Of a stretch of DNA of 64,000 bases, positions 1-13,707 are shown piece by piece. This DNA is from Escherichia coli. GTDB lineage: Bacteria; Pseudomonadota; Gammaproteobacteria; Enterobacterales; Enterobacteriaceae. The DNA is taken from assembly GCF_050920415.1 (NCBI RefSeq), contig NZ_CP169309.1; one strand, 5' to 3'. The position numbers and the translations under genes were made by a program. Each line of letters begins with the position of its first letter. Within the stretch, counting starts at the first letter, position 1. The notes under the pieces are model-generated. The model was not told where the DNA came from and searched no databases. It worked only from the letters and a program-made list of their open reading frames with translations.

Positions 1-203
1 AGATGGGTTAATGCCTGTGAAGACGGGGCATCGGCGATAACGGTAAGGTAAAAAGTAAATCCGATCGTCATAAACACGCCTGCGGACATCGCCATTAAAA
101 AGACCGACACTTTGCTGCGGGCAATTTTATGGGCGGCAATCCGTTCAGCGATTGCCGCTTTTCTGGCGCTCAACTGCAAGTCGAAAGAGAGTTTGTTTCT
201 CAT
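1..203 (-). CDS. focB: Formate channel FocB, N-terminal part (gene runs off window start)
   Basis: Minus-strand translation from ATG at 201-203 gives MRNKLSFDLQLSARKAAIAERIAAHKIARSKVSVFLMAMSAGVF..., recognised as FocB N-terminus; position just downstream of hyfR as in K-12. Confidence 0.85.
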   Translation of the reverse strand, partial: MRNKLSFDLQLSARKAAIAERIAAHKIARSKVSVFLMAMSAGVFMTIGFTFYLTVIADAPSSQALTH

Positions 204-224
204 GCATACTCCTGCAAAAACAGA

Positions 225-2237
225 TTACAACACCTCGCGAACCGAGATCCCCAGCCGCTGCATTCGTGACAGCAGCGTGGTGCGCTTCATCCCTAATCGC
301 GTCGCCGCGCCACGGGGCCCGGCAACAATGCCATTGGTTTCTCGCAATACCTGAACAATGCGCTTACGTTCTTCTTCGTCATTCTCTGGCGTCGTCGGGT
401 GCAGTAACTGCGCCATTGAACTGCGAAGCGCTGAATCTTCATTTAGCGTCGGCAGTAAACGGCTTTGTCGGACATTAAGATGTAAATTCAGACTGTTACC
501 GCGAGTCAGTAGTACCGCTCGCTCAATCACGTTTTCCAGCTCGCGCACGTTGCCCGGCCAGTCCCACGACATCAACTGGCGTAGCGCTTCTGTTGGAATG
601 GCATCAATTGTGCGATTCATATGGCGAGCCATTTTTTGTGTAAAATGTTTTGCTAAAAGAGGGATATCTTCCGGACGGTCGCGTAGCGGCGGCAATTCCA
701 GTGGAAAGACGTTCAGGCGATAAAAGAGATCGCTGCGAAACTGGCGATCTTCTACCATTTGCCACAAATCACGGTTGGTGGCGGCAATGACTCTGACATT
801 CACCGGGATCGTTCTACTCCCACCGAGACGCTCAATTTCCCGCTCCTGTAATACGCGTAGCAGTTTGGGCTGAAGTTCTAACGGCAGATCGCCAATTTCA
901 TCGAGAAATAACGTGCCGCCATCGGCAATTTCAAAACGACCACGATGAGTGTTAATCGCGCCAGTAAATGCCCCTTTGTCGTGACCGAATAACTCACTTT
1001 CCAGAAGACTGGCGGGGATGGCAGCGCAGTTGATTTTGACCAGCGGCTTGTCGCGTCGTGGGCTAAGTTGATGGATCGCTCTGGCGATCACCTCTTTGCC
1101 GGTTCCGGTTTCACCACAAATCAACACCGTACTGTCGCTCTTCGCCACAATATCTACCTGCTGGAGCAAATCTTCCATTGCCTGGCTTTGATAGATAATG
1201 TCACCGACGCCCAGATTCGAAAGGAGCTGCTCGCTAAGCTGGTGGTTTTCTTGCTGCAAGCTTTCCTGCAAATCGGTCATGCTACGCCAGGCATCGGCAT
1301 TGCCAACGGCAATAGCGATGCGATCGGCAATATGTTGTAGTAGCTGGCAGTTTTCCTCCCCAAAGAGAGTGGAAGAGGTATGCGCCAGCAACAATGCACC
1401 CGGTGTATGGTTGCCAAAGGTGAGCGGTATAAGGAGCGCAGATTCGCAGCCGTTAGATGCAAGTAAGTGTAATAACGGGTCGCGTTGCCAGAGAAACAGA
1501 TCGTCTGCACGGTGCGTCAAGGTCGGTTGTCGGGTTTGTAGCGTTTGTGTCAGCAATACACTTTCGCCAGGCATACAGCGTGGCAGACTCGCACAATGTG
1601 AGGCAGAAAGATCGCTGCACCACAGGCTGAACTTCTCGTTCTTTCGATGATCGCCCAGTACCATACTGACTGAAGCCAGACCGAAAAAATGATGGATCTC
1701 ACGAGCGACGTCAGCGATCAGATCGTCGAGATCAAGATGTGACAACACTGCATTAGTGATATCCACCAGTACCCGATGATGATCGCGATCTTTCTCCAGC
1801 AAACGCAGCGCCACCTGCTGTTCTTCATCATTGAGCCATGATTGCAGAACCGGAGTGATTATGTGTGCCAGCCAGTTAAACAGTGTGCAATCCTGGGGAG
1901 TAAAACGATTGCCGTGGGTGCGAATAAAGCGTAGCTCCGCCATTCCACTACTGCCGAGAAGGACGGCGTGGCGCGAATAATCGACCATCTCGCCCTGATA
2001 CTCTGTTGTTGCCGTCACATCGCTGCCATCATCATGGTAGCGGTAATAGAAGTTGCTTTTGAGAACATGCAGTTCAATAAGTTGTACCGGGCTGAACGGC
2101 GGCGGCAGCGGGATGAAGGCGCGTAATAAAGACGCCTTGCCGTGTTTCTGCGCTAACCGCTCCGCGAGCATTCCGTTTACCGCTTCAATTGTTATTCCTT
2201 GTGGCGGGGCAAACATCGCCTCGTCTGACATAGCCAT
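225..2237 (-). CDS. hyfR: Sigma-54-dependent transcriptional activator of hyf operon
   Basis: 670-aa ORF; AAA+ sigma-54 activator motifs (GETGTGKE Walker A, GAFTGA), C-terminal HTH; FhlA-like GAF N-domain. Confidence 0.95.
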   Translation of the reverse strand: MAMSDEAMFAPPQGITIEAVNGMLAERLAQKHGKASLLRAFIPLPPPFSPVQLIELHVLKSNFYYRYHDDGSDVTATTEYQGEMVDYSRHAVLLGSSGMAELRFIRTHGNRFTPQDCTLFNWLAHIITPVLQSWLNDEEQQVALRLLEKDRDHHRVLVDITNAVLSHLDLDDLIADVAREIHHFFGLASVSMVLGDHRKNEKFSLWCSDLSASHCASLPRCMPGESVLLTQTLQTRQPTLTHRADDLFLWQRDPLLHLLASNGCESALLIPLTFGNHTPGALLLAHTSSTLFGEENCQLLQHIADRIAIAVGNADAWRSMTDLQESLQQENHQLSEQLLSNLGVGDIIYQSQAMEDLLQQVDIVAKSDSTVLICGETGTGKEVIARAIHQLSPRRDKPLVKINCAAIPASLLESELFGHDKGAFTGAINTHRGRFEIADGGTLFLDEIGDLPLELQPKLLRVLQEREIERLGGSRTIPVNVRVIAATNRDLWQMVEDRQFRSDLFYRLNVFPLELPPLRDRPEDIPLLAKHFTQKMARHMNRTIDAIPTEALRQLMSWDWPGNVRELENVIERAVLLTRGNSLNLHLNVRQSRLLPTLNEDSALRSSMAQLLHPTTPENDEEERKRIVQVLRETNGIVAGPRGAATRLGMKRTTLLSRMQRLGISVREVL

Positions 2238-2266
2238 TAACAGTCCTTATTAATGAGAAATCCTTC

Positions 2267-2680
2267 TCACGCAATTTTTCTGGCCATCAGATAGATGGCC
2301 GGTTCCTGCACAATTTCATCCAACAGATGAATGAATTGAATGCTACGCGCCTGCCACACAGACGTCGCGTCATCTGCCAGTGGCGCGAATGCCCGGGTCA
2401 ACAGGGCGGTGTGGCTGGCGTCAATAACAATCTCACCAAAGGTCATCACCCCCAGCATCTTACGTCGGGCTTGCTCCTCTTCGACCTGTGCAAGCCAATC
2501 TTCGTATTCCGTCTGTGGGCAGCGGAAGGCGACATTCAGACAATCAATCACGCCAACGTGATGACCGATAGCCAACGAGTAATACATTACCTGGGAGCTG
2601 TGTTCCGGCATCTCGTCGCTACTGGCGATAAATTTTTTTCGCAGTGTCCAGAAAACAATTTCCCCGCACTCCTCAGCCAT
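2267..2680 (-). CDS. hyfJ: Hydrogenase-4 maturation/assembly protein (HycH-like)
   Basis: 137-aa ORF at 3' end of hyf operon; length and position match HyfJ. Confidence 0.85.
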
Positions 2681-3431
2681 GTAACCCCCGGAGAACGCGA
2701 AAGAGTTGCTGAACGATACTATTGAGACGCGGATCGTCGGCTTCGCGCAACCAGGTGTTAACCCGATTTCCTGTAGGATCGTCGCTTAAATGGCGCAGGA
2801 GCCGATCGCAAATTTCTCGCCCCTGACGATAGCCCGCCAGCCGCCTCGCTTCTCGCTCAATGGCGATACGCTGTGATGGCGGGATATGCGGCCACAGCGG
2901 TTGCATGGTCACCCCGGTGGGATCGCGATAATCCACCGCGTGAATCTTCTGTTGTAGCAAACCGAGCGCCACGGCGAAACCGTGAATGGTGGCGGCCGGT
3001 GTTGGCGGGCAGCCGGGGATCCAAACATCAATGGGGACAATGGTGTCGCTGCCGCCCCAGACGCTGTAGAGATCGTGGAAAATACCGCCGCCGACACCGC
3101 ACGCGCCGTAGGAAACACAGATTTTATGATCGGGGGCAGACTCATATGCCCGAAGTGCAGGCATACGCATCGCCCGGGTGACTGCGCCAGTAAATAACAA
3201 AATATCGGCGTGACGAGGTGATGAAACAACCTTAATGCCAAAGCGTTCTGCGTCGAACACTGGCGTGATGGCGGCAAAAATTTCGATTTCACAGGCGTTG
3301 CAGCCGCCACAATCCACGCGATAAACGTAGGCCGAACGACGGATATCCTGTAGCAAATGCTGCTTCATCTTTTGCGTTTGTTCGTCCAGCGTGATGGGCT
3401 GGCTGACATGTTGCGTAAGCACTGGACTCAT
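2673..3431 (-). CDS. hyfI: Hydrogenase-4 small subunit (NuoB-like)
   Basis: 252-aa ORF; NuoB-type Fe-S cysteine motifs ([12 protein letters not shown]); overlaps hyfJ and hyfH by a few nt (coupled). Confidence 0.9.
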
Positions 3432-3973
3432 AGCTGCTCCTTAGCCACCAGCGGTTCATCTGTGTCGTCGTTGATCAGCGTCGCGCGTTGTTTGCATTCC
3501 GGGCAGACGCTCGCTTGCGCCCACAACATTTCGCGGTTTTGTGGTGCATTTTGTTGCTGTGCCAACAGTTCTGCAGCCAGTGCGACGGTTTTTTGCGGGG
3601 CAAACGGGCGTTCGCAACGGCTGCAACGTTGTAGATGGAACTTCGCGCGGGTATAGAGATCGGCTTTATTGGTGACGGTCAGTTCAAAGTTATCAGTAAG
3701 CTGAATGGCTCTGGTCGGGCACACTTCTTCACAACGTCCGCAGTAAATACAACGCCCCAGATAGAGCTGCCAGGTGCGCGTATTTTGCTGGTCGTCGGTC
3801 TGGATAGTCAGCGCATTTGCCGGACAAGCACAGGCGCAGGCACCGCAGGCAATACATTGGCTGGGCATCAGGTCCGGTTTCCCGCGAAAGCCTGGGCTGA
3901 CCTCCAGTGGCGCGAAGGGATATTTCACCGTCGCGGTTCCGGCGCGCATAATAGTTTTCAGTAACTTCAGCAT
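3428..3973 (-). CDS. hyfH: Hydrogenase-4 ferredoxin-type subunit (2x 4Fe-4S)
   Basis: 181-aa ORF with two CxxCxxCxxxCP motifs. Confidence 0.9.
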
Positions 3974-3982
3974 TTTCTGTCC

Positions 3983-5743
3983 TTACTTCAGCGGCGAACG
4001 GTTACGATCAATGCCGTAGCGTTCGATCTCTTTATACGGCACGGTTTTTGACTGGCGCTTGCGCACATCAACCAGCGTCACACGGTCGGTACAGGAGTAG
4101 CAGGGATCAAGGCTACCGATAATCAGCGGTGCGTCAGAAACGGTATTGCCGCGCAGCATGTAACGCAGCACTGGCCAGTTGGCGTAGGTGGCGGCACGAC
4201 AGCGCCAGCGGAACAATTTTTGGTTATCGCCGAGCATGCTCCAGTGCACGTCTTCACCGCGTGGCGCTTCAACAAAGCCCAGCGCGAATGCGTGAGGTTT
4301 ATAGCTAAAGCCTTCGGTCAGCAGTGGGGTATCCGGCATGTTGTCGAGGGCAAATTCCAGCATTGCCAGCGAATCAAACGTCTCTTTGACACGGACCATC
4401 ACGCGGGAGAAGACATCGCCGCCGGTAAAGGTAAACAGCGTTTTTGGAATATTGCCGTAGTCGGCGTAGGGGTGATCAAAGCGCAAATCACGGGCAAAAC
4501 CACTGCCACGGATCAGCGGCCCTACGGGGCTATAATCACGGGCGATTTGTCGGTCGAGAATGCCAATGCCCTGAGTGCGTTGTTCCATATTCGGCGTGGC
4601 AAGCAGCATCTCTACCAGCTCCGACACGTCGGCGCGCATCTCGCGCACCAGTTTCATCGTTTGCAGACGTTGCTCTTTGAGAATATCGCGGCGAACACCA
4701 CCAATCAGATTCAGACCGTAGGTTTTACGCGACCCGGTCAGCAATTCCGCCATCGTCATCGACTTTTCCCGCACGCGGAAAAATTGCATAAAACCGGTAT
4801 CAAAACCAACAAAATGGCAGGAGAGGCCAAGGTTGAGCAAATGACTATGCAGCCGTTCGACTTCCAGCAGAATCGAGCGAATAGTATGCGCTCGTTGCGG
4901 CACCTCAATCCCCAGTGCATTTTCAACCGAGTTGGTATAGGCCACACTGTGGGCAAAACCGCAAATCCCACACACGCGGTCCGACAAGAAGGTCACTTCG
5001 TTGTAGCCCATCCGCGTTTCTGCCAGTTTCTCCATGCCGCGATGGACATAAAACAGGCGGTAATCAGCATCGACAATATGCTCGCCATCCACAAACAAGC
5101 GGAAGTGACCTGGTTCATCGGAGGTGATATGCAGCGGGCCAACAGGGATCACCCGCGCATCGCTGTTGCCCTCGTTGATAAACGGATACGTTTCGGTATC
5201 AGTCGTCGGTTCAGGGCGCAGGCGATAATCCATCGCGTCTTTGCGCAGCGGATGCATATCTTCCGGCCAGTCATCGGGCAACACCAGGCGACGCTGATCC
5301 GGCAGGCCAACCGGAATCAGCCCGTACATATCGCGAATTTCTCGCTCGCCCCAGACCGCGGCAGGGACGCGCGGTGTGACTGACGGAAACTCCCGACTGT
5401 CGGCATCGACCAGTGCCTTCACCACGATCCAGCATTTTTCGGCCCCTTCCATTGAAAGGGCATAATAAACCGCGTAATGACCGTTAAGTGTCCGCTCGTC
5501 GTTGCCAAACAGGACCGGAAGCCAGCCATCATGTTGATAATAAAGATAATGTACAACGTCAGGCAGCAGATTTATTTTCACCGTAATGGTGACCTGTTCA
5601 GGCGTTTGTCGCTCTTCATCCAGCACCGCGCCGGGGAACTGCGTTTTCAGGGCGGCGAGAATCGCTTCGCCACGATTTGACGATGAATTAACGTTCACTG
5701 TGTTTCTCCGAAACAGATGCGGTGCCTGAAGGCAAAAAATCAT
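3983..5743 (-). CDS. hyfG: Hydrogenase-4 large (NiFe) subunit
   Basis: Longest ORF 586 aa; NuoD/HycE-like sequence. True start is probably an internal GTG near 5698 ([14 protein letters not shown]...). Confidence 0.9.
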
Positions 5744-7268
5744 GCCAGGTGCTACGTTGTGCAGGCAGGTCGTGCGTCCCTGAGAGGACTATAGTGGAAG
5801 CGCCCGCCAGGATCCTGATGACAGGTTGTGGAATATGCGTTCCCATCGCCAGCATCATGACCAGCAGAATCACCATTGGCGAGGTGGTCAACCAGCCAAG
5901 TTCACCCCGGTTAACGGCCTGCGGCGGTTTCGCCATTAACACCCGCGCAGCCATCCGTACCAGGCCCGCCAGCACCAGCGTTAACAGCAATAACAGCAGG
6001 ACGATAATCAACAGGTGATTACGAGCCAGTCCGGCGGTAACGGTCATAAATTCGCTAAGAAAAATGTTGAAGGGCGGCATCCCGGCCAGCGCCAGCGCAC
6101 CGCCGCCAAACAGCACGGCGGTAAATGGCATGATTTTGAGCATTCCGCAGACGACGTTGAGATCGCGCGTGCCGTACTTGAGCAGTACATTGCCGGAACC
6201 GCAGAACAGCAGCGTTTTTGCCAGACTGTGGTTTAAGGTGTGCAGCAGCGCAGCAAAAATTCCCAGCGGCCCGCCAATGCCTAGCGCCACCGCGACCAGT
6301 CCCATGTTCTCCACGCTGGAGTACGCCAGCAGACGCTTAATGTCCCGCTGTACCAGAATGAAAAATGCCGCCACGGCAACCGACAACATGCCGAAGATGA
6401 GCAACAACCGGTTGGGGAAATCGCTGCCGATGGCCTGGCAAATAATGATGTAATAGCGAATCAGCACCAACAGCGCGCAGTTCAGCAATACGGCGGAGAG
6501 CAGGGCGCTGACCGGACTCGGCGCTTCACTGTGAGCATCCGGCAGCCAGGCGTGCATGGGAAATAGCCCGGTTTTGGTGCCAAAGCCAATTAGCACAAAC
6601 ACAAAGGCCAACAGCATTAATGTTGGGTCAAGCAAGGACGATTGCTTAAGAACCTCGCTCCAGAATATCGCCATTTCTGCCTGCGGCATAACGCTGGCGG
6701 CGTTGGCGTATACCAGCACGGTACCGAACAGACCAAAAGCGACACCAACAGTACAAATAATGATGTACTTCCATGCAGCTTCCAGAGATGAACGCTGACC
6801 GTAAATGCCTACCAGAAACGCCGAGCTTAAGGTGGTGGCTTCGATTGCCGCCCACATCACAATCAGGTTATTGCTGGTAACAACCAGCAGCATGGTGAAC
6901 AAAAACAGATGGAAGAAACCGTAGTAATCGCACAGCGTAACGGGTGAAAGCTCGCCGTGAGCCACTTCATGACGCATGTAGCCAATCGAGTAAACACCGG
7001 TGAGAAAGCCAATCACACCAAGAATGGCGAGGAACAAACCGCCCAGACCATCAATATGAAGCCACAGTCCGGCGGCGAATATTTCTTCCGCATCCGCGGC
7101 GGTTTTGACCACCCAGAGTGCCAGAATCAGCAGCAGCGTGATCCCTAAGCTATGTAATACTGTCACCGTGCGAGTCGCAGAGTGTCCCCGTTTCCGGCAG
7201 GCAAAACAGAGCAGCGAAAAAAGCAGCGGCGTGAGCAGGAGTAAAGCGAACATCACAGAATAACTCAT
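5688..7268 (-). CDS. hyfF: Hydrogenase-4 membrane subunit (NuoL/M/N antiporter-like)
   Basis: 526-aa polytopic membrane ORF; operon position. Confidence 0.9.
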
Positions 7269-7272
7269 CTCA

Positions 7273-7923
7273 TTATCCCTTCAGCGCGGTCAAGTTGTTC
7301 ACGTCCAGCGTGCCGTGGGTACGCCATATTTTTCTTGCCAGCAACACCATCACAACGACGGCGAAAATGGCATCGGTAGCGATACCAATTTCCACCAGTT
7401 CCGGTGCACGCCAGGCAAGAAGTGCCAGCACCAGATGGGAGCCGTTTTCCATCAGGCAGTAACCAAAAATTTGCCGCAGGATATTGCGCTGGCTGACAAT
7501 GCACAGCAGGCCAAGCAGAAAATGACCTAACGCCACCGCCAGCGCCGGTTTCAGCCCGGTAGCCATCGGTAGCTTCACGGGCTGAACGACAAATGCGCAA
7601 AGCAGGACAATTAATGCCGCGAGCAATGCCATCATTGCCGGACCGAATAACGCTTTTTCCGGGAGGTTCTGGGGAATATTTCGTGCAGCGTAAATCATGA
7701 TTAACGGTACCATCAGTACTTTGGTGATAAAGGCGCTGGCGGACCAGATCAGCAGTTGCTCTGCGGCGAACAGGCACGAGAGGGTGGCGAAAATAGACAC
7801 CAGCACCAGCGACTGGCAGGCGTAAAATCCGCATGACAGGCGATAGCTTTTGACACTAATCACAAACAGCGATGTCAGCATCATCAGTCCCGCCAGATTA
7901 TTTACGATCATAGAACCGGTCAT
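7273..7923 (-). CDS. hyfE: Hydrogenase-4 membrane subunit
   Basis: 216-aa hydrophobic ORF; operon position. Confidence 0.9.
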
Positions 7924-7934
7924 TCATCATCTCC

Positions 7935-9374
7935 TTACTGCAACCAGGTCGCGGCGAATACGCTGGAAATCAGCGACATCACAATCAGTACAATCAACAC
8001 CAGGCGCATTGATCCTGGCAGCGGTGCGGCATCAGCGACGGCCTCGCTCGGTTTGCCAGGCACAACGCGACCAAACCAGCGAATAAACCAGGCGAAACTG
8101 GCAATCGATTCAATCATCAGCAGAATCATGGCGGGCAGCAGGATCCAGTACTCCACTGACAACGAAAAACCGGCAGCAAACAGTGGGAATTTACTGAAGA
8201 AGCCGTTGAACGGCGGCACGCCAGTAATCGCCAGCGCGGCCACGCAGAAACCCACGCCTGGCAACGGCAGGGTGTGCAATACGCCACGCAGACGCGGCAA
8301 CAAGCGCGTGCCGCAGCTGTAACTCAGCGCACCGGCTACAAGGAAAAACAGGCTTTTAGCGAACGCGTGGTTGACGATGTAGGCGATGCTGCCCTCCAGT
8401 GCCAGCCGCGAGCCGAAGATGGAGAGCGACAAGCCGAAGAACATCCAGCCAAGTTGAGTGATGGTCGACCAGGCCAGCAACCGCTTCATATCCTGCTGCG
8501 GCAAATACATCAGGAAGCCGTAAAGAATGGTGACCAGTGCCATGACCATGCCAACGCCGCCAATCACATGCGGGATATTGCCGCCGTCGATAATGGCGCG
8601 GGCAAAAATGTAAACGCCCACTTTCACCATCGATGCGGCGTGGAGATAGGCGCTGATCGGTGTTGGCGCTTCCATTGCATCCGGTAGCCACGCTTGCATC
8701 GGTAGCTGGGCCGATTTCCCCCACGCGGCAAACAGGATGCCACCATAAACCAGATAGCGTGCGTCGCCGTGTAACTCGCTCATCGCGCTAAGCGCAAACG
8801 TTCCGGTCTGCAAAAACAGCGTGGCGGCGGCAAGATACAACCCCAGCGAACCGATATGAGTGATAAGTAACGCTTTTAGTGCTGAACGTTGCGCTTTATC
8901 GCTCTGGTAATAACTGATCAACGCCCAGGAGCAGCCGCCCGTAATTTCAAAAAACAACAACTGACCGAGCAGCGTCGAGGAGAGTACCAGTCCCGCCATC
9001 GCGCCGATAAAAACCAGCAAAAATGCGTAATAACGATTCGTGCCGTTATGCGGGTGTTCGCGATTTTTATCCGTCAGATAACCCGTGGAGTAGATCGTGA
9101 CCAGCAAACCGAGGAACACCACCACAAACAGAATCAGCGTACTCACGCGATCAATGATCAGGCCAAACAACGCCACATCCCCCACGTTGACCAACGTCAA
9201 CGTGACGGCAACTTTATCGGCCTGATAAAACGCGGAGATCAGCGACAACATGCACAGCGTGGTCAGCGCGGCGAACAAAATCCCCCATTCGGCGGCCCGA
9301 CGTTGTGGCGAAAACGAAACGACCAGTGCGCCGATAAAAGGCAGCAATAACGTCGTCAGAGCAAGATTTTCCAT
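7935..9374 (-). CDS. hyfD: Hydrogenase-4 membrane subunit (NuoL/M/N antiporter-like)
   Basis: 479-aa polytopic membrane ORF. Confidence 0.9.
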   Translation of the reverse strand: MENLALTTLLLPFIGALVVSFSPQRRAAEWGILFAALTTLCMLSLISAFYQADKVAVTLTLVNVGDVALFGLIIDRVSTLILFVVVFLGLLVTIYSTGYLTDKNREHPHNGTNRYYAFLLVFIGAMAGLVLSSTLLGQLLFFEITGGCSWALISYYQSDKAQRSALKALLITHIGSLGLYLAAATLFLQTGTFALSAMSELHGDARYLVYGGILFAAWGKSAQLPMQAWLPDAMEAPTPISAYLHAASMVKVGVYIFARAIIDGGNIPHVIGGVGMVMALVTILYGFLMYLPQQDMKRLLAWSTITQLGWMFFGLSLSIFGSRLALEGSIAYIVNHAFAKSLFFLVAGALSYSCGTRLLPRLRGVLHTLPLPGVGFCVAALAITGVPPFNGFFSKFPLFAAGFSLSVEYWILLPAMILLMIESIASFAWFIRWFGRVVPGKPSEAVADAAPLPGSMRLVLIVLIVMSLISSVFAATWLQ

Positions 9375-9390
9375 ATTCCGTCAGTGCTCC

Positions 9391-10338
9391 TTACAGACCG
9401 GTTAACCAGAAGACCCAGGCAAGCGCAGCAAGGCTGAAGCCAAGCCAGGTCACATGGTGAATGAGTAAAAAACGCCCGCGTGCCAGCGTGTTTTCTGCGA
9501 TAGAGGCCAGAACAAAAATCAGCAAAACCTTGAGCAGCGTAACGACAAGTGAAGTCAGCAGGCAGGTGAGAGAAAGCTCTTGCGCGCGCCCAAAGGGCAG
9601 AAACAGGGCCACAAACAGTGCTGCCATCACGACCTGTTTCAGCCCCAGCCCCCATTTCGCCAACGCCAGCCCGGCACCGGAATATTCGGTCAGCGGGCCT
9701 TCCTGTAATTCCTGTTCTGCTTCAGCAACATCAAAGGGAATTTTTCCCATCTCAATGAAGCAGGCAAAACCACAGGCCAGTAACGCCAGTACGGTGGTTA
9801 GCGGCGAGTTCCAGCCCGTCGCCAGCGTCTTGCTGATCATCTCGATATGCGTGGAATCCGCTATCAGCGCCAATACCAGCAGTGAGAGAATGAGCATTGG
9901 TTCGACCAGAATGCCGAGCGTCAACTCGCGACTGGCACCGACACCCGCAAACGGACTTCCGGTATCCAGCCCGGAAAGAGCAAAGAAAAAACGAAACAGG
10001 GCAAGAAGATAGATAAGGGTGATCAGATCGCCGCCGCCCGCAAAAGGGGAAACAGTAATAAATAGTGGTAGGGCCATCGCCAGCACCAGCATGCTGCTGA
10101 TTAATACCCACGGCATCAGGCGGAACATCAGACCTGAAGATGTCGGCGCAACTTCCTGGCGTTTAAACAGTTTGTGGATATCGCGATAATCCTGCCAGAT
10201 CCCCGGTCCGCGACGGGAGTGCATACGCGCGCGTATCTGCCGGGAAATCCCCGTAAAAAGCGGGGTTAGCGCCAGCAGAATCACGGCCTGTGCTAACGCA
10301 AAAATGATCAGATATCCGTCGCAAAGAGTTTGTCTCAT
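9391..10338 (-). CDS. hyfC: Hydrogenase-4 membrane subunit (NuoH/HycD-like)
   Basis: ORF 322 aa; start taken at internal Met (MRQTLCDGYL...) giving 315 aa. Confidence 0.9.
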   Translation of the reverse strand: MRQTLCDGYLIIFALAQAVILLALTPLFTGISRQIRARMHSRRGPGIWQDYRDIHKLFKRQEVAPTSSGLMFRLMPWVLISSMLVLAMALPLFITVSPFAGGGDLITLIYLLALFRFFFALSGLDTGSPFAGVGASRELTLGILVEPMLILSLLVLALIADSTHIEMISKTLATGWNSPLTTVLALLACGFACFIEMGKIPFDVAEAEQELQEGPLTEYSGAGLALAKWGLGLKQVVMAALFVALFLPFGRAQELSLTCLLTSLVVTLLKVLLIFVLASIAENTLARGRFLLIHHVTWLGFSLAALAWVFWLTGL

Positions 10339-10348
10339 GGTGATTTCC

Positions 10349-12367
10349 TTAGACGGCAATAGCGATTAGCAGCACAACCAGTGCGGCGACCACATACAGG
10401 CAATAGAGACGAAAGTCGCCGCTTTGCAGATGCTGTATTTCTTTGGCCAGCCGTTGGGTGGCGCTCACGATGGGGCGGATCACCCGCTCATCCCAAAAGG
10501 GTTCTGTGCTCTGAGCCCTGGCGGTGATGTGCGCGAGACCTTTGTTCAGCCTCAGCGTAGGGTCGAGCTGTTGTCGTAGACGAAATAGCGCAGAAAAGAC
10601 CACACGCAGCGGCTGCATCACGCCATTGCCTGACGGGGCCATCGCATTTTCCCAGCCGTAGCCGCATGCCCAGGCATCTCCTGTGCGACGAAACGCTGCG
10701 CGGCGCGAACGACACCACAGCCAGTAAAGGCCAGGCAGCAAAGGCATCGCCAGTAGTAACAGCAACAGTAATGAGGGAGTGACCCGTGTATGAAACGTGC
10801 CGGGTACAAGTGCCATTCCGCTGGCGACAGTGACGGAAGGGGTATTGGTAAACGCATGGGCAATGTGCATTATCTTCGGTGCCAGCCAACTGGCACTAAG
10901 CGCAATGAATACGCAGAGTGCCGCGAGCAGTAGCATGGCGACGATCATCGTATTTGGCACTTCCTGTGCCTCTTCAGCGTGTGTACTGCGCGGCGCACCA
11001 CAGAAAGTAATGCCGTACATTTTGACGAAGCACATTACTGCCAGCCCACCAGTGACTGCCAGCATCACCATAGCAATAGGACCCGCAAGTTGTAGCGCTA
11101 CGGCTTCCACACGACTTAGTGAGAACAGCGACTGCCAGGTGTACCATTCGCTGATAAAACCATTCAGCGGAGGAATGGCTGATATCGCGAGGCAACCAAT
11201 CAGGCATGCTGCGGCTGTCCACGGCATCCGTTTTGCCAGTGCCCCCATTTTTTCCATGTCGTGGGTATGCAAACGCGAAATAATCGCACCCGCGCCGAGA
11301 AATAGCAGCCCTTTGAACAGCGCATGGTTGAGCAGATGAAACAGTGCGCCGAGCAGTCCAACCACGGTGAGCAGCGGGTCGTGCAGTGACAGACCGACCA
11401 TGGACACACCGACCGCCAGCAAAATAATGCCGACGTTTTCGACGGTACTCCAGGCCAGCAGCCGTTTGATATCCTGTTCCGCCAGCGCATACAGCACGCC
11501 CAGGAGCGCGGAGATTGCGCCGATCGCCATCACCAGAATGCCCCACCACAGCGGCAAACCCGTTTGCGCCAGCAGATCCATCGCCACTTTCAGGATGCCG
11601 AAAATACCGATTTTGACCATTACGCCAGACATCAACGCCGAAGCGTGCGATGGTGCGGCAGGGTGAGCGCGCGGCAACCAGCTGTGCAACGGCATCATCC
11701 CGGCTTTCGCGCCAAAACCGAAGAAGGCCAGCAGGAACACCGCCGACGCCAGCCCCGGAGAAAGTGAAAGCGTGCGGAAACTGGCAAAATCGAGGTTGCC
11801 GCTTTCGCGCCACATCAGCAAGAAGGCAATCATAATCAGCACCGATCCGGCGTGGGCGATAAAAAAGTAGAGCATGCCAGCGTTGATTGACGTTTTATCC
11901 TGCCTGGCAATGACCAGAAACCAGGAAGACAGCGACATCATTTCAAACAGCACGATGAACCAAAAAGCGTTGTCCATCACCAGCAGGGCAACCATCGATG
12001 CGATGAAAAGATTCATAAAGAAGCCCATCGCCGCCGCGCCTTTGCCCTCGTATTCGCGCATATAAGTCAATGAATAGAGCGAACAAACCACCACCAGCAA
12101 GGAGATAACCAGCACCATAAATGCCGAGAGGCTATCCATTCGCAGGGTTAAATCGGCAAAGTCAAAAGGCGTGGCAAAACGGGCGACTAAAGTTACGCCT
12201 GCATGTAATTGCGTAATTCCGCTGATGATGCCAATCGCGCCGCCCACCAGCGATGTGATGCCGGAAAGCTTAATAGCCAGTCTGTCCAGACCGAGTAAAA
12301 ACAGCGAAGCCAGACTGGCAAACAGATAGAGGATCAGCGACCAGGTTAATAATTGCAGGGCATCCAT
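10349..12367 (-). CDS. hyfB: Hydrogenase-4 membrane subunit (NuoL-like)
   Basis: 672-aa polytopic membrane ORF; stop overlaps hyfC start region. Confidence 0.9.
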   Translation of the reverse strand: MDALQLLTWSLILYLFASLASLFLLGLDRLAIKLSGITSLVGGAIGIISGITQLHAGVTLVARFATPFDFADLTLRMDSLSAFMVLVISLLVVVCSLYSLTYMREYEGKGAAAMGFFMNLFIASMVALLVMDNAFWFIVLFEMMSLSSWFLVIARQDKTSINAGMLYFFIAHAGSVLIMIAFLLMWRESGNLDFASFRTLSLSPGLASAVFLLAFFGFGAKAGMMPLHSWLPRAHPAAPSHASALMSGVMVKIGIFGILKVAMDLLAQTGLPLWWGILVMAIGAISALLGVLYALAEQDIKRLLAWSTVENVGIILLAVGVSMVGLSLHDPLLTVVGLLGALFHLLNHALFKGLLFLGAGAIISRLHTHDMEKMGALAKRMPWTAAACLIGCLAISAIPPLNGFISEWYTWQSLFSLSRVEAVALQLAGPIAMVMLAVTGGLAVMCFVKMYGITFCGAPRSTHAEEAQEVPNTMIVAMLLLAALCVFIALSASWLAPKIMHIAHAFTNTPSVTVASGMALVPGTFHTRVTPSLLLLLLLAMPLLPGLYWLWCRSRRAAFRRTGDAWACGYGWENAMAPSGNGVMQPLRVVFSALFRLRQQLDPTLRLNKGLAHITARAQSTEPFWDERVIRPIVSATQRLAKEIQHLQSGDFRLYCLYVVAALVVLLIAIAV

Positions 12368-12984
12368 TAGCGTTGCTCCTGAGTGAGGGAAAGGGGATCC
12401 TCCCCGCCATTGGCAAACCAGCTTGCGGCAAGGCGCTGTTTTTCTTTCATCTGACGTTGCAGGCTATCGTCGGTGATCAGCCGTAACGCATGATTCGGGC
12501 AAGCGCGAACGCAGGCCGGACCTTCTGGCAAGAAATCACACAGGTCGCATTTCACCGCGACGCTCTGGACACCCGGTTCCCAGCGCAGCAAAGCATGTTG
12601 GGTCGGCGCGTTTTCTTCGCCGTCTTTGAGTGAGCCGTCAGCCTGAAAAACATATTGCGCAGGGGCATTCACCGGACGGCTTCCTGAAGCGCTGATTGCG
12701 CCAAATGGGCAGACCACGGCGCAAAGCTTGCAGCCAATACAGAGGCTTTCGTTGAGTTGGATCGCATCATCTCTCTGGGAGATGGCATTGACCGGGCAGA
12801 CCTGCAGGCAAGGGGCTTCCTCACAGTGATGACACACGACAGGGGCAGTGAGTGTTGACGTCTTCGCCAGGGCCAGGCGCGGGTGTTGCTGTAAACCTTG
12901 CGTTTTATGCACGTCCGAACAGGCAGCGAGACAGGTATTACATCCTGTACACCACAGTGGTTCGGCCACCACAAAGCGGTTCAT
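12367..12984 (-). CDS. hyfA: Hydrogenase-4 Fe-S subunit (HycB-like, 4x 4Fe-4S)
   Basis: Start at Met of MNRFVVAEPLWCTGCNTC (205 aa) preceded by AAGGAG SD 5 nt upstream; multiple CxxCxxCxxxC motifs. Confidence 0.9.
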   Translation of the reverse strand: MNRFVVAEPLWCTGCNTCLAACSDVHKTQGLQQHPRLALAKTSTLTAPVVCHHCEEAPCLQVCPVNAISQRDDAIQLNESLCIGCKLCAVVCPFGAISASGSRPVNAPAQYVFQADGSLKDGEENAPTQHALLRWEPGVQSVAVKCDLCDFLPEGPACVRACPNHALRLITDDSLQRQMKEKQRLAASWFANGGEDPLSLTQEQR

Positions 12985-13025
12985 GTCGGCTCCTTGAAAA
13001 TGATATGAAACATTGCATTTCATAT

Positions 13026-13041
13026 TGCATAAAGGATGCCA
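13026..13041 (-). promoter_or_regulatory. Sigma-54 (-24/-12) promoter of hyf operon
   Basis: Minus-strand reads TGGCAT-CCTTT-ATGCA (consensus TGGCAC-N5-TTGCA) about 40 bp upstream of the hyfA ATG; consistent with the HyfR/FhlA-dependent hyf promoter. Confidence 0.65.
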
Positions 13042-13236
13042 GTCTGATTAATTTAATATATTCAATAAGTTATGTATTAACTGGATTCTGAACGGTACAA
13101 AAATGATGGTCATTAACGTTCAGCAATAAATGGATTCGACACCCGTGTCGCAGGGGAAAGCGAGAATGTGATCTTGATCACGAGAAGTGAGGTGTGCTGG
13201 CCGCAAGCGCAGCCAGCACTGAATGGAGCAAAGTAA

Positions 13237-13707
13237 TCAGGCGTGTTCTTTCAGCCAGTTCAGCACAACGTCGTGGTGATTGCTGGTTTTGAAATCGTCA
13301 AAGACATGTTCGATTTTGCCATCAGCGTCAATCAGGAAGCTGATGCGATGAATACCATCGTAGGTTTTGCCCATGAAGGACTTTTCACCCCAGACGCCGA
13401 ATTGTTCGCACACCTGGTGGTCCTCATCAGACAGGAGCGTAAAGTTAAGCAGCTCTTTTTCCGCAAAACGGGAGAGTTTTTCGGGTTTATCGGTGCTGAT
13501 ACCCAGCACATCAACGCCCGCTTTTTTCAATTCATCCATGTTATCGCGTAAGCCGCAGGCCTGTACGGTACAGCCGGGAGTCATGGCTTTTGGGTAAAAA
13601 TAAACCAGAACACGCTGTCCCTGGAAGTCGGTCAAATTAACTTGTTCTCCGTCTTGATCCGGCAAGCTAAATTTCGGTGCGATATCACCGGCTTTCAGTG
13701 GATTCAT
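13237..13707 (-). CDS. bcp: Thiol peroxidase / bacterioferritin comigratory protein (peroxiredoxin)
   Basis: 156-aa ORF; peroxiredoxin active-site motif PGCT. Confidence 0.95.
   Translation of the reverse strand: MNPLKAGDIAPKFSLPDQDGEQVNLTDFQGQRVLVYFYPKAMTPGCTVQACGLRDNMDELKKAGVDVLGISTDKPEKLSRFAEKELLNFTLLSDEDHQVCEQFGVWGEKSFMGKTYDGIHRISFLIDADGKIEHVFDDFKTSNHHDVVLNWLKEHA

Follow-up and report, generated by a model that had tools for sequence, protein, structure and literature searches.

The closest described systems are the promoters of the formate regulon of Escherichia coli, which drive hycA, hypA, fdhF and hydN, and the promoter of the hydrogenase-4 operon hyf, which has FhlA, formate and RpoN as regulators in common with them. 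In both cases a -24/-12 core is combined with dyads of the FhlA type, G(A/T)C-N6-G(A/T)C, about 100-140 nt upstream and with an IHF-type bend between the two, the dyad and the bend site of hyf being candidates. The hyfA promoter differs from the formate-regulon promoters in that it possesses an extra CRP site and a dedicated second activator, HyfR, and its core is weaker than those of hycA and hypA (PSSM scores of 10.5 versus 12.4 and 14.1; PMC4591121). The dyads also differ in sequence: the classical FhlA site is of the TGTCG-N4-TGACA type, and the candidate dyad of hyfA reads CGACAC..TGTCG.

Transcription of both hyc and hyf is activated by FhlA and is dependent on RpoN (PMC7658346, citing Self 2004 and Skibinski 2002). 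The K-12 site ATGGCATCCTTTATGCA is OS23, a peak in ChIP-seq of sigma-54, with a FAT value of 16, and has been assigned to hyfA (Bonocora 2015, PMC4591121); the same source flags it as experimentally confirmed in EcoCyc and gives a predicted transcription start 31 nt from hyfA (PMC4591121). In genomic SELEX the bcp/hyfA spacer produced a peak of 92% with the RpoN holoenzyme alone and of 100%, the top value, when NtrC was present (Shimada 2021, PMC8743547). Engineered promoters give no Hyd-4 activity (PMC7654741). The promoter of hyfA, its sigma factor, its activators and its dependence on CRP are already known from work of 1997-2004 and were reconfirmed genome-wide in 2015 and 2021. The operon is reportedly essentially silent in wild-type K-12, as the title of Self 2004 puts it; Skibinski 2002 is reported to have found that HyfR binds the hyf promoter region and to have placed the transcription start, by primer extension, 30 bp upstream of hyfA. 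The hyfAp promoter of the K-12 hyf operon is the subject of Andrews 1997, Skibinski 2002 and Self 2004.

The present work concerns the 252-nt spacer between bcp and hyfA in a segment of an E. coli chromosome of 64,000 nucleotides, the whole of which is referred to below as the window. Genes were annotated from E. coli MFDS1022581, which differs from the window by 5 bases across the whole 64 kb. The minus strand carries, in order, focB (which is cut), hyfR, hyfJ to hyfB, and hyfA, so that a cognate enhancer-binding protein is present in cis, while the FhlA gene lies outside the window. The Pfam domains of HyfR are GAF, Sigma54_activat (4.7e-75), AAA_lid_14 and HTH_8, the last with a match under the Pfam gathering cut-off (20.8 versus 22 bits). 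For the comparison within the species, a 401-nt query around the promoter was used, which has matches in 5,424 of 5,426 complete E. coli genomes and is matched at full length in 4,297; the E. coli spacers are about 98% identical to one another. The genes and the elements closest to hyfA are as follows.

hyfR: 225..2237, minus strand; gene of the enhancer-binding protein, at the distal end of the hyf cluster.
hyfA coding sequence: 12367..12984, minus strand; the operon's first gene, which encodes a 4Fe-4S ferredoxin-type subunit of hydrogenase 4 with 205 aa.
Shine-Dalgarno sequence AAGGAG: 12990..12995, minus strand; separated from the ATG by 5 nt.
Perfect inverted repeat ATATGAAA-N7-TTTCATAT: 13003..13025, no strand assigned; found by a dyad search.
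Predicted transcription start: 13014..13015, minus strand; from a motif-centre rule and a reported primer-extension result.
Sigma-54 -24/-12 core TGGCATCCTTTATGCA: 13026..13041, minus strand; from the motif, identity with K-12, ChIP-seq, gSELEX and conservation.
bcp: 13237-13707; upstream of hyfA, as is gcvR.

The sequence-only reading of this DNA had proposed a sigma-54 promoter of the form TGGCAT-N5-ATGCA, situated about 40 bp upstream of the hyfA ATG and belonging to an operon activated by FhlA and HyfR. The pattern is present where it was claimed to be, at 13041..13026 on the minus strand, with its GG at 13040/13039 and its GC at 13028/13027, which gives the canonical GG-to-GC spacing of 10 bp, and the 16-mer ends 41 nt before the ATG (12984..12982) on the same strand. 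The stretch from TGGCAT to the ATG is identical in the window and in E. coli K-12 MG1655, and the distance from the centre of the motif to the ATG is 50 nt in both. The two sequences differ in the base directly 5' of TGGCAT, which is A in K-12 and C in the window, in two further substitutions within the upstream AT-rich stretch and in three more farther up the spacer, and none of these substitutions touches a conserved box. On the strength of the identity with K-12, the ChIP-seq and gSELEX results and the published statement on regulation (PMC7658346), the attribution to the FhlA/HyfR-activated operon stands, and we place at roughly 95% the probability that 13041..13026 on the minus strand is the sigma-54 promoter hyfAp, which serves the hydrogenase-4 operon hyfABCDEFGHIJ(-hyfR-focB).

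The motif itself contributes little to this assignment. TGGCATCCTTTATGCA has a single mismatch to TGGCAY-N5-TTGCW, and its departures from the consensus are T for C at -22 and A for T at -15; with one mismatch allowed, the consensus has 9 matches in the window compared to 8.2 expected, and the bare motif is no better than chance. An RpoN matrix was built from 186 promoters (Table 2, PMC7658346), and the promoter scan that had been put forward as a check on the original proposal recovers the hyfA site with it at 12.2 of 21 bits, which ranks 8 in the window, since seven intragenic sites equal or beat it. Because the motif is not enriched in the window, its significance rests instead on position, conservation and the literature. 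As to position, the hyfA element is the only fully intergenic match among the 44 that reach at least 9 bits on the RpoN matrix in the 64 kb, and when the 252-nt spacer is shuffled, its hyfA strand shows an equally good match in only 0.3% of cases (P = 0.003).

Conservation was assessed with a HyfA-based scan of one genome per species, which recovered 45 loci, no Escherichia, Shigella or Salmonella locus being among them. Most of these loci have a -24/-12 element with a score of 12-19 bits at a distance of 38-83 nt from the hyfA ATG. The loci with the element come from at least 10 other genera, among them Citrobacter, Kosakonia, Atlantibacter, Sodalis, Dickeya, Morganella, Providencia, Pectobacterium and Photobacterium, and some of them belong to Betaproteobacteria; the loci that do not have it are mostly hycB-type genes with another gene in front. 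The alternative to a functional promoter would be that the -24/-12 match has arisen by chance and that read-through from bcp or some other promoter accounts for the transcription of hyfA. Matches as good as this one occur in the 64 kb at the expected frequency, and a hairpin that follows bcp has no T run, which makes some read-through conceivable. This alternative is nevertheless very improbable, given the direct occupancy of the identical K-12 site by sigma-54 both in vivo and in vitro, the retention of the element at a similar distance from hyfA across genera while its flanks diverge, and the outcome of a scan of 12900-13300 for sigma-70-like promoters, which found none.

Two minor observations concern other sequences that resemble sigma-54 elements. 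Sense-oriented motifs of this kind, scoring 12.4-13.6 bits, occur within hyfR, hyfF and hyfD on the minus strand at 400-415, 1798-1813, 6208-6223 and 8538-8553, two of them in hyfR and upstream of focB; they are not among the ChIP-seq sites in the text of PMC4591121, where hyfA is the sole hyf entry. There is also a direct repeat of ATGCAAT on the minus strand, at 13012-13018 and 13024-13030, with the copies 12 nt apart; the TGCA of the -12 element is in the first copy, and the second copy overlaps the start site. As a second promoter the repeat was rejected, for it has no GG partner and is probably due to chance.

The start of transcription can be placed in two ways that agree to within one nucleotide. 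The reported primer-extension start, 30 bp upstream of hyfA, presumably corresponds to position 13014, and the rule that transcription starts 19 nt beyond the motif centre (PMC4591121) gives by arithmetic a start at 13015, 31 nt from the ATG. The AAGGAG Shine-Dalgarno sequence that had been described for hyfA is found at 12995..12990 and is kept as (A/G)GGAG in Citrobacter and Kosakonia. The same reading had preferred the 205-aa start codon on the ground that the longest open reading frame would begin inside the promoter. The preference is sound, but its premise requires correction, because the first base of that frame is actually 13023, at about -8; this is past the 16-mer by 3 nt, in the interval that separates the -12 element from the predicted start site. 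An ATG at 13023 is upstream of the predicted transcription start and would therefore be off the mRNA. The ATG at 12984 is used by both RefSeq/PGAP and the K-12 annotation, and a start of the form ATGAACCGC/ATGAATCGC (encoding MNR) after a GGAG-type Shine-Dalgarno sequence is kept in most orthologues among the loci recovered, while the 13-codon N-terminal extension is not conserved among related hyfA loci.

An inverted repeat had also been claimed to lie between the promoter and the start codon. The repeat exists, ATGAAA-N7-TTTCAT being present at 13023..13005, and it is longer than had been noted, with perfect 8-nt arms, ATATGAAA at 13025..13018 and TTTCATAT at 13010..13003. The part of the claim that fails is its placement, because the centre of the repeat, 13014, coincides with the predicted start at 13014-13015, so that in the transcript the repeat is not wholly between promoter and start codon. 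A perfect repeat with arms 8 nt long or longer turns up in 5% of cases when the spacer is dinucleotide-shuffled and in 2% when this is done with the 60 nt before the ATG; in a post hoc test on the 36 nt surrounding the start site, it turned up in 0 of 300 shuffles. The palindrome is thus mildly unusual. Among the loci recovered, the 25 other distinct orthologous promoters examined, Citrobacter and Kosakonia included, have no comparable dyad at the start site. The right-hand block AA(T/C)GTTT is conserved across orthologues and the left arm of the palindrome is not.

The arm length and the 7-nt spacing would suit a protein dimer, and the palindrome might accordingly be read as an operator at which a dimeric protein bound across the start blocks the open complex and contributes to the silence of hyf in E. 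coli. The perfect 8-nt arms are centred within 1 nt of the predicted start, the dyad is locally unusual in the 36-nt shuffles (less so, at 2-5%, for the larger regions), 4285 of 4297 E. coli genomes share without change the 30-mer 12996..13025, in which the palindrome lies, if its end base 13025 (A13025T) is set aside, and the holoenzyme binds the spacer strongly in vitro, as seen by gSELEX, yet the operon is reported to be silent. Several considerations weaken this reading until it must be called improbable. The dyad is absent from the same place in Citrobacter, Kosakonia and the other orthologous promoters examined, the local shuffle test was post hoc, and a comparison by eye with operator consensuses (CRP, FNR, Fur, Cra, PurR, TyrR, ArgR, OmpR, NarL and ModE) gave no match. 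The invariance of 12996-13025 does not discriminate between the explanations, because the same stretch is also the start site and the leader, and E. coli spacers are in any case about 98% identical. The more specific version, in which a repressor would hold a strongly bound sigma-54 closed complex inactive and so explain in part why hydrogenase 4 is silent in E. coli, is if anything slightly less probable still; if it were true, it would partly account for the contrast with active orthologous Hyf systems, such as that of Pectobacterium.

A second functional reading, in which the inverted repeat forms a hairpin in the hyfA leader RNA that controls translation or stability, is very unlikely. A transcript that contained the full repeat would give a 9-pair stem of -6 kcal/mol. 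The predicted start, however, falls in the loop at the centre of the palindrome, which leaves the 5' arm out of the mRNA, and therefore no hairpin is possible there; in its folding the leader from 13015 does not surpass shuffles (z = +1.1), and the full stem is not exceptional either (z = -0.8, with 31 of 200 shuffles folding as well). The z-scores for folds in the palindrome and leader region are in all +1.1, +0.55 and -0.8, and the hairpin was rejected on the ground that neither leader nor palindrome folds better than shuffles. The repeat is, in addition, not conserved across orthologues and has no Rfam match: at a permissive threshold, Rfam found no family in 12900-13300, the one hit being a PhrS fragment within bcp at the level of chance (E = 0.67). 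Most probably, the palindrome has no separate function and is a feature that the AT-rich melted region has acquired in this lineage.

The remainder of the spacer was examined through its conservation in other genera. Because Citrobacter and Kosakonia keep the synteny of bcp and hyfA, their spacers can be aligned with that of the window. Their hyfA promoters (loci L004-L009) have the same box order and spacing as the E. coli promoter and differ from it in two respects, the absence of the start-site palindrome and, in Kosakonia, a better core (TGGCAC..ATGCT, 15-17 bits). Against a diverged background, the alignment leaves as conserved blocks the bcp hairpin, the CRP box, the dyad, a box at -97, an IHF-like site, the -24/-12 element, AA(T/C)GTTT, the Shine-Dalgarno sequence and the ATG. 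The upstream elements of this footprint, with positions counted from a start at 13015, are listed here.

IHF-like site ATTCAATAAGTTA: 13060..13074, plus strand; 12 of 13 positions agree with the IHF consensus WATCAANNNNTTR; between the UAS region and the promoter, binding predicted.
Box TGACCATCA(T/C)TTTTGT: 13097..13112, minus strand; 16 nt, at about -97.
Dyad CGACAC-GG-GTGTCG: 13137..13150, no strand assigned; at about -135, candidate FhlA/HyfR upstream activating sequence.
CRP-type site cGTGA-TCAAGA-TCACA: 13164..13185, no strand assigned; at about -160, 9 of 10 positions of TGTGA-N6-TCACA.
GC-rich hairpin: 13194..13219, minus strand; directly follows the bcp stop codon and bounds the hyf control region on its upstream side.

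The dyad supplies a candidate for the binding site of FhlA or HyfR. Its core, CGACAC-N3-TG(T/C)CG, is kept in Escherichia, Citrobacter, Kosakonia and Atlantibacter, at -126 to -135 in several genera, and related dyads of the form CG(A/T)CA(C/T)-N3-TGNCG occur in six or more further genera at about -90 to -166; the sequences with related dyads come from Atlantibacter, Sodalis, Dickeya, Morganella, Providencia, Pectobacterium, Photobacterium, Uliginosibacterium and a Burkholderiaceae MAG. The E. coli dyad retains the near-invariant positions of the FhlA matrix, G2, C4, T10, G11 and C13, but scores only 4.6 bits. In a search for FhlA/HyfR upstream activating sequences, which had been suggested together with the promoter, the published FhlA matrix has no strong match in the spacer except the CRP-like palindrome; the candidate dyad comes from the comparison across genera. 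The best score of the FhlA matrix is 12.2 bits, inside bcp, and comparable scores occur throughout the window. Used by itself, the matrix is too weak.

The 16-nt box at -97, TGACCATCA(T/C)TTTTGT, is invariant in Escherichia, Citrobacter and Kosakonia, in each of which it is located between -96 and -98. Neither the FhlA matrix nor CRP nor IHF accounts for it. Compared by eye with the same operator consensuses as the palindrome, it gave one notable result, agreement with the Fur box at 14 of 19 positions in E. coli and at 12 of 19 in Citrobacter, and this apparent resemblance is unproven. In E. coli the box is flanked by a 10-nt inverted repeat, CTGAACGTTA / TACCGTTCAG (13088-13123). In the IHF-like site, the block AAC-N4-TTGA is kept in Citrobacter and Kosakonia, one species of which has a perfect IHF consensus, and the block recurs in other genera.

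In 7 sequences the half-sites of the CRP box are kept although the spacer between them varies, and Citrobacter has a perfect TGTGA-N6-TCACA; the box also resembles an FNR half-site pair. According to a CRP gSELEX study, hyfA is a known CRP target that was recovered by that method (PMC3105977), and an FNR site has been predicted at hyfA but was not occupied (PMC3688515); both sets of data fit the box at 13164-13185. The GC-rich hairpin beyond it is probably the terminator of bcp, and different GC-rich sequences that form hairpins are found at the same place in Citrobacter and Kosakonia. A simple terminator scan of 12900-13300 called none, because the bcp hairpin has no T run. What appears to be new in this part of the analysis is that the footprint across genera yields a concrete candidate site for HyfR or FhlA (CGACAC-N3-TGYCG at about -135), together with the conserved box at -97.

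These elements can be arranged into a proposed mechanism, in which two points have been shown, in the literature and for the identical K-12 sequence: sigma-54 RNA polymerase binds the -24 GG and the -12 GC as a closed complex, and RpoN and FhlA are required for the expression of hyf. To judge from sequence conservation and from what is known of this class of promoters, the closed complex would be unable to open the DNA unaided, and an AAA+ enhancer-binding protein, either FhlA with formate or HyfR, would be expected to open it. The activator would bind upstream, most likely at CGACAC-N3-TGTCG near -135 and possibly also at the -97 box, and bending of the DNA at the IHF-like site, near -50, may bring it to the polymerase, where its hydrolysis of ATP would melt the AT-rich stretch from -10 to +1. 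CRP at the site near -160 would presumably add catabolite control. The predicted transcript, from about 13014-13015, would have a leader of 30-31 nt and a strong Shine-Dalgarno sequence from which the 205-aa HyfA could be translated.

The promoter varies within E. coli. Among the 4,297 carriers, the 30-mer 13012-13041 is exact in 3,690, has one change in 467 and has two changes in 140. A C-to-T change in the spacer is found in 56 genomes. At the -24 GG itself (13039-13040), GA is present in 87 E. coli genomes of one background, and GA combined with A13025T is present in 139 mostly O157:H7 genomes, including EDL933. Of the 4,297 complete genomes with hyf, about 5% in all carry the GG-to-GA change (loci L049, L055 and L057), and the presence of the allele in two backgrounds suggests recurrence or recombination. 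The RpoN matrix score falls from 12.2 bits to 2.8 bits for the GA allele, and the promoter is therefore predicted to be dead in the GA lineages. This -24 GG-to-GA change in about 5% of hyf-bearing E. coli, which is expected to inactivate the promoter, is apparently new, and it would fit the view that the hyf operon is decaying, or is dispensable, in E. coli.

Some strains differ on a larger scale. The hyf promoter is missing from 1,129 of the 5,426 complete E. coli genomes. In an ST131 genome (locus L052), bcp is directly followed by yfgO, and therefore the entire hyfA-focB cluster, corresponding to 1-13236 of the window, is absent there. E. coli Res13-Lact-PEB14-36 (locus L050) has a 14-bp tandem duplication, CATCCTTTATGCAA, inside the promoter, equivalent to 13025-13038; the duplication keeps one intact -24/-12 element, which is 14 bp farther from the start-site region and the ATG.

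A last observation concerns loci that were recovered by the HyfA-based scan in Pseudescherichia, Siccibacter, Serratia and one Enterobacteriaceae MAG (L026), in which the HyfA-like gene is of the hycB type and is preceded by another open reading frame. In these loci (L026, L029, L041, L028, L031, L033 and L036, at positions of about 2880-2995) there is no sigma-54 core directly upstream of the HyfA-like gene. Just before the Shine-Dalgarno sequence they have paired sites of the FhlA type, for example GTGTCGAAATGACA ... TTTCGTCAAAAATGACC, which resemble the known FhlA site in the hycA-hycB spacer of E. coli.
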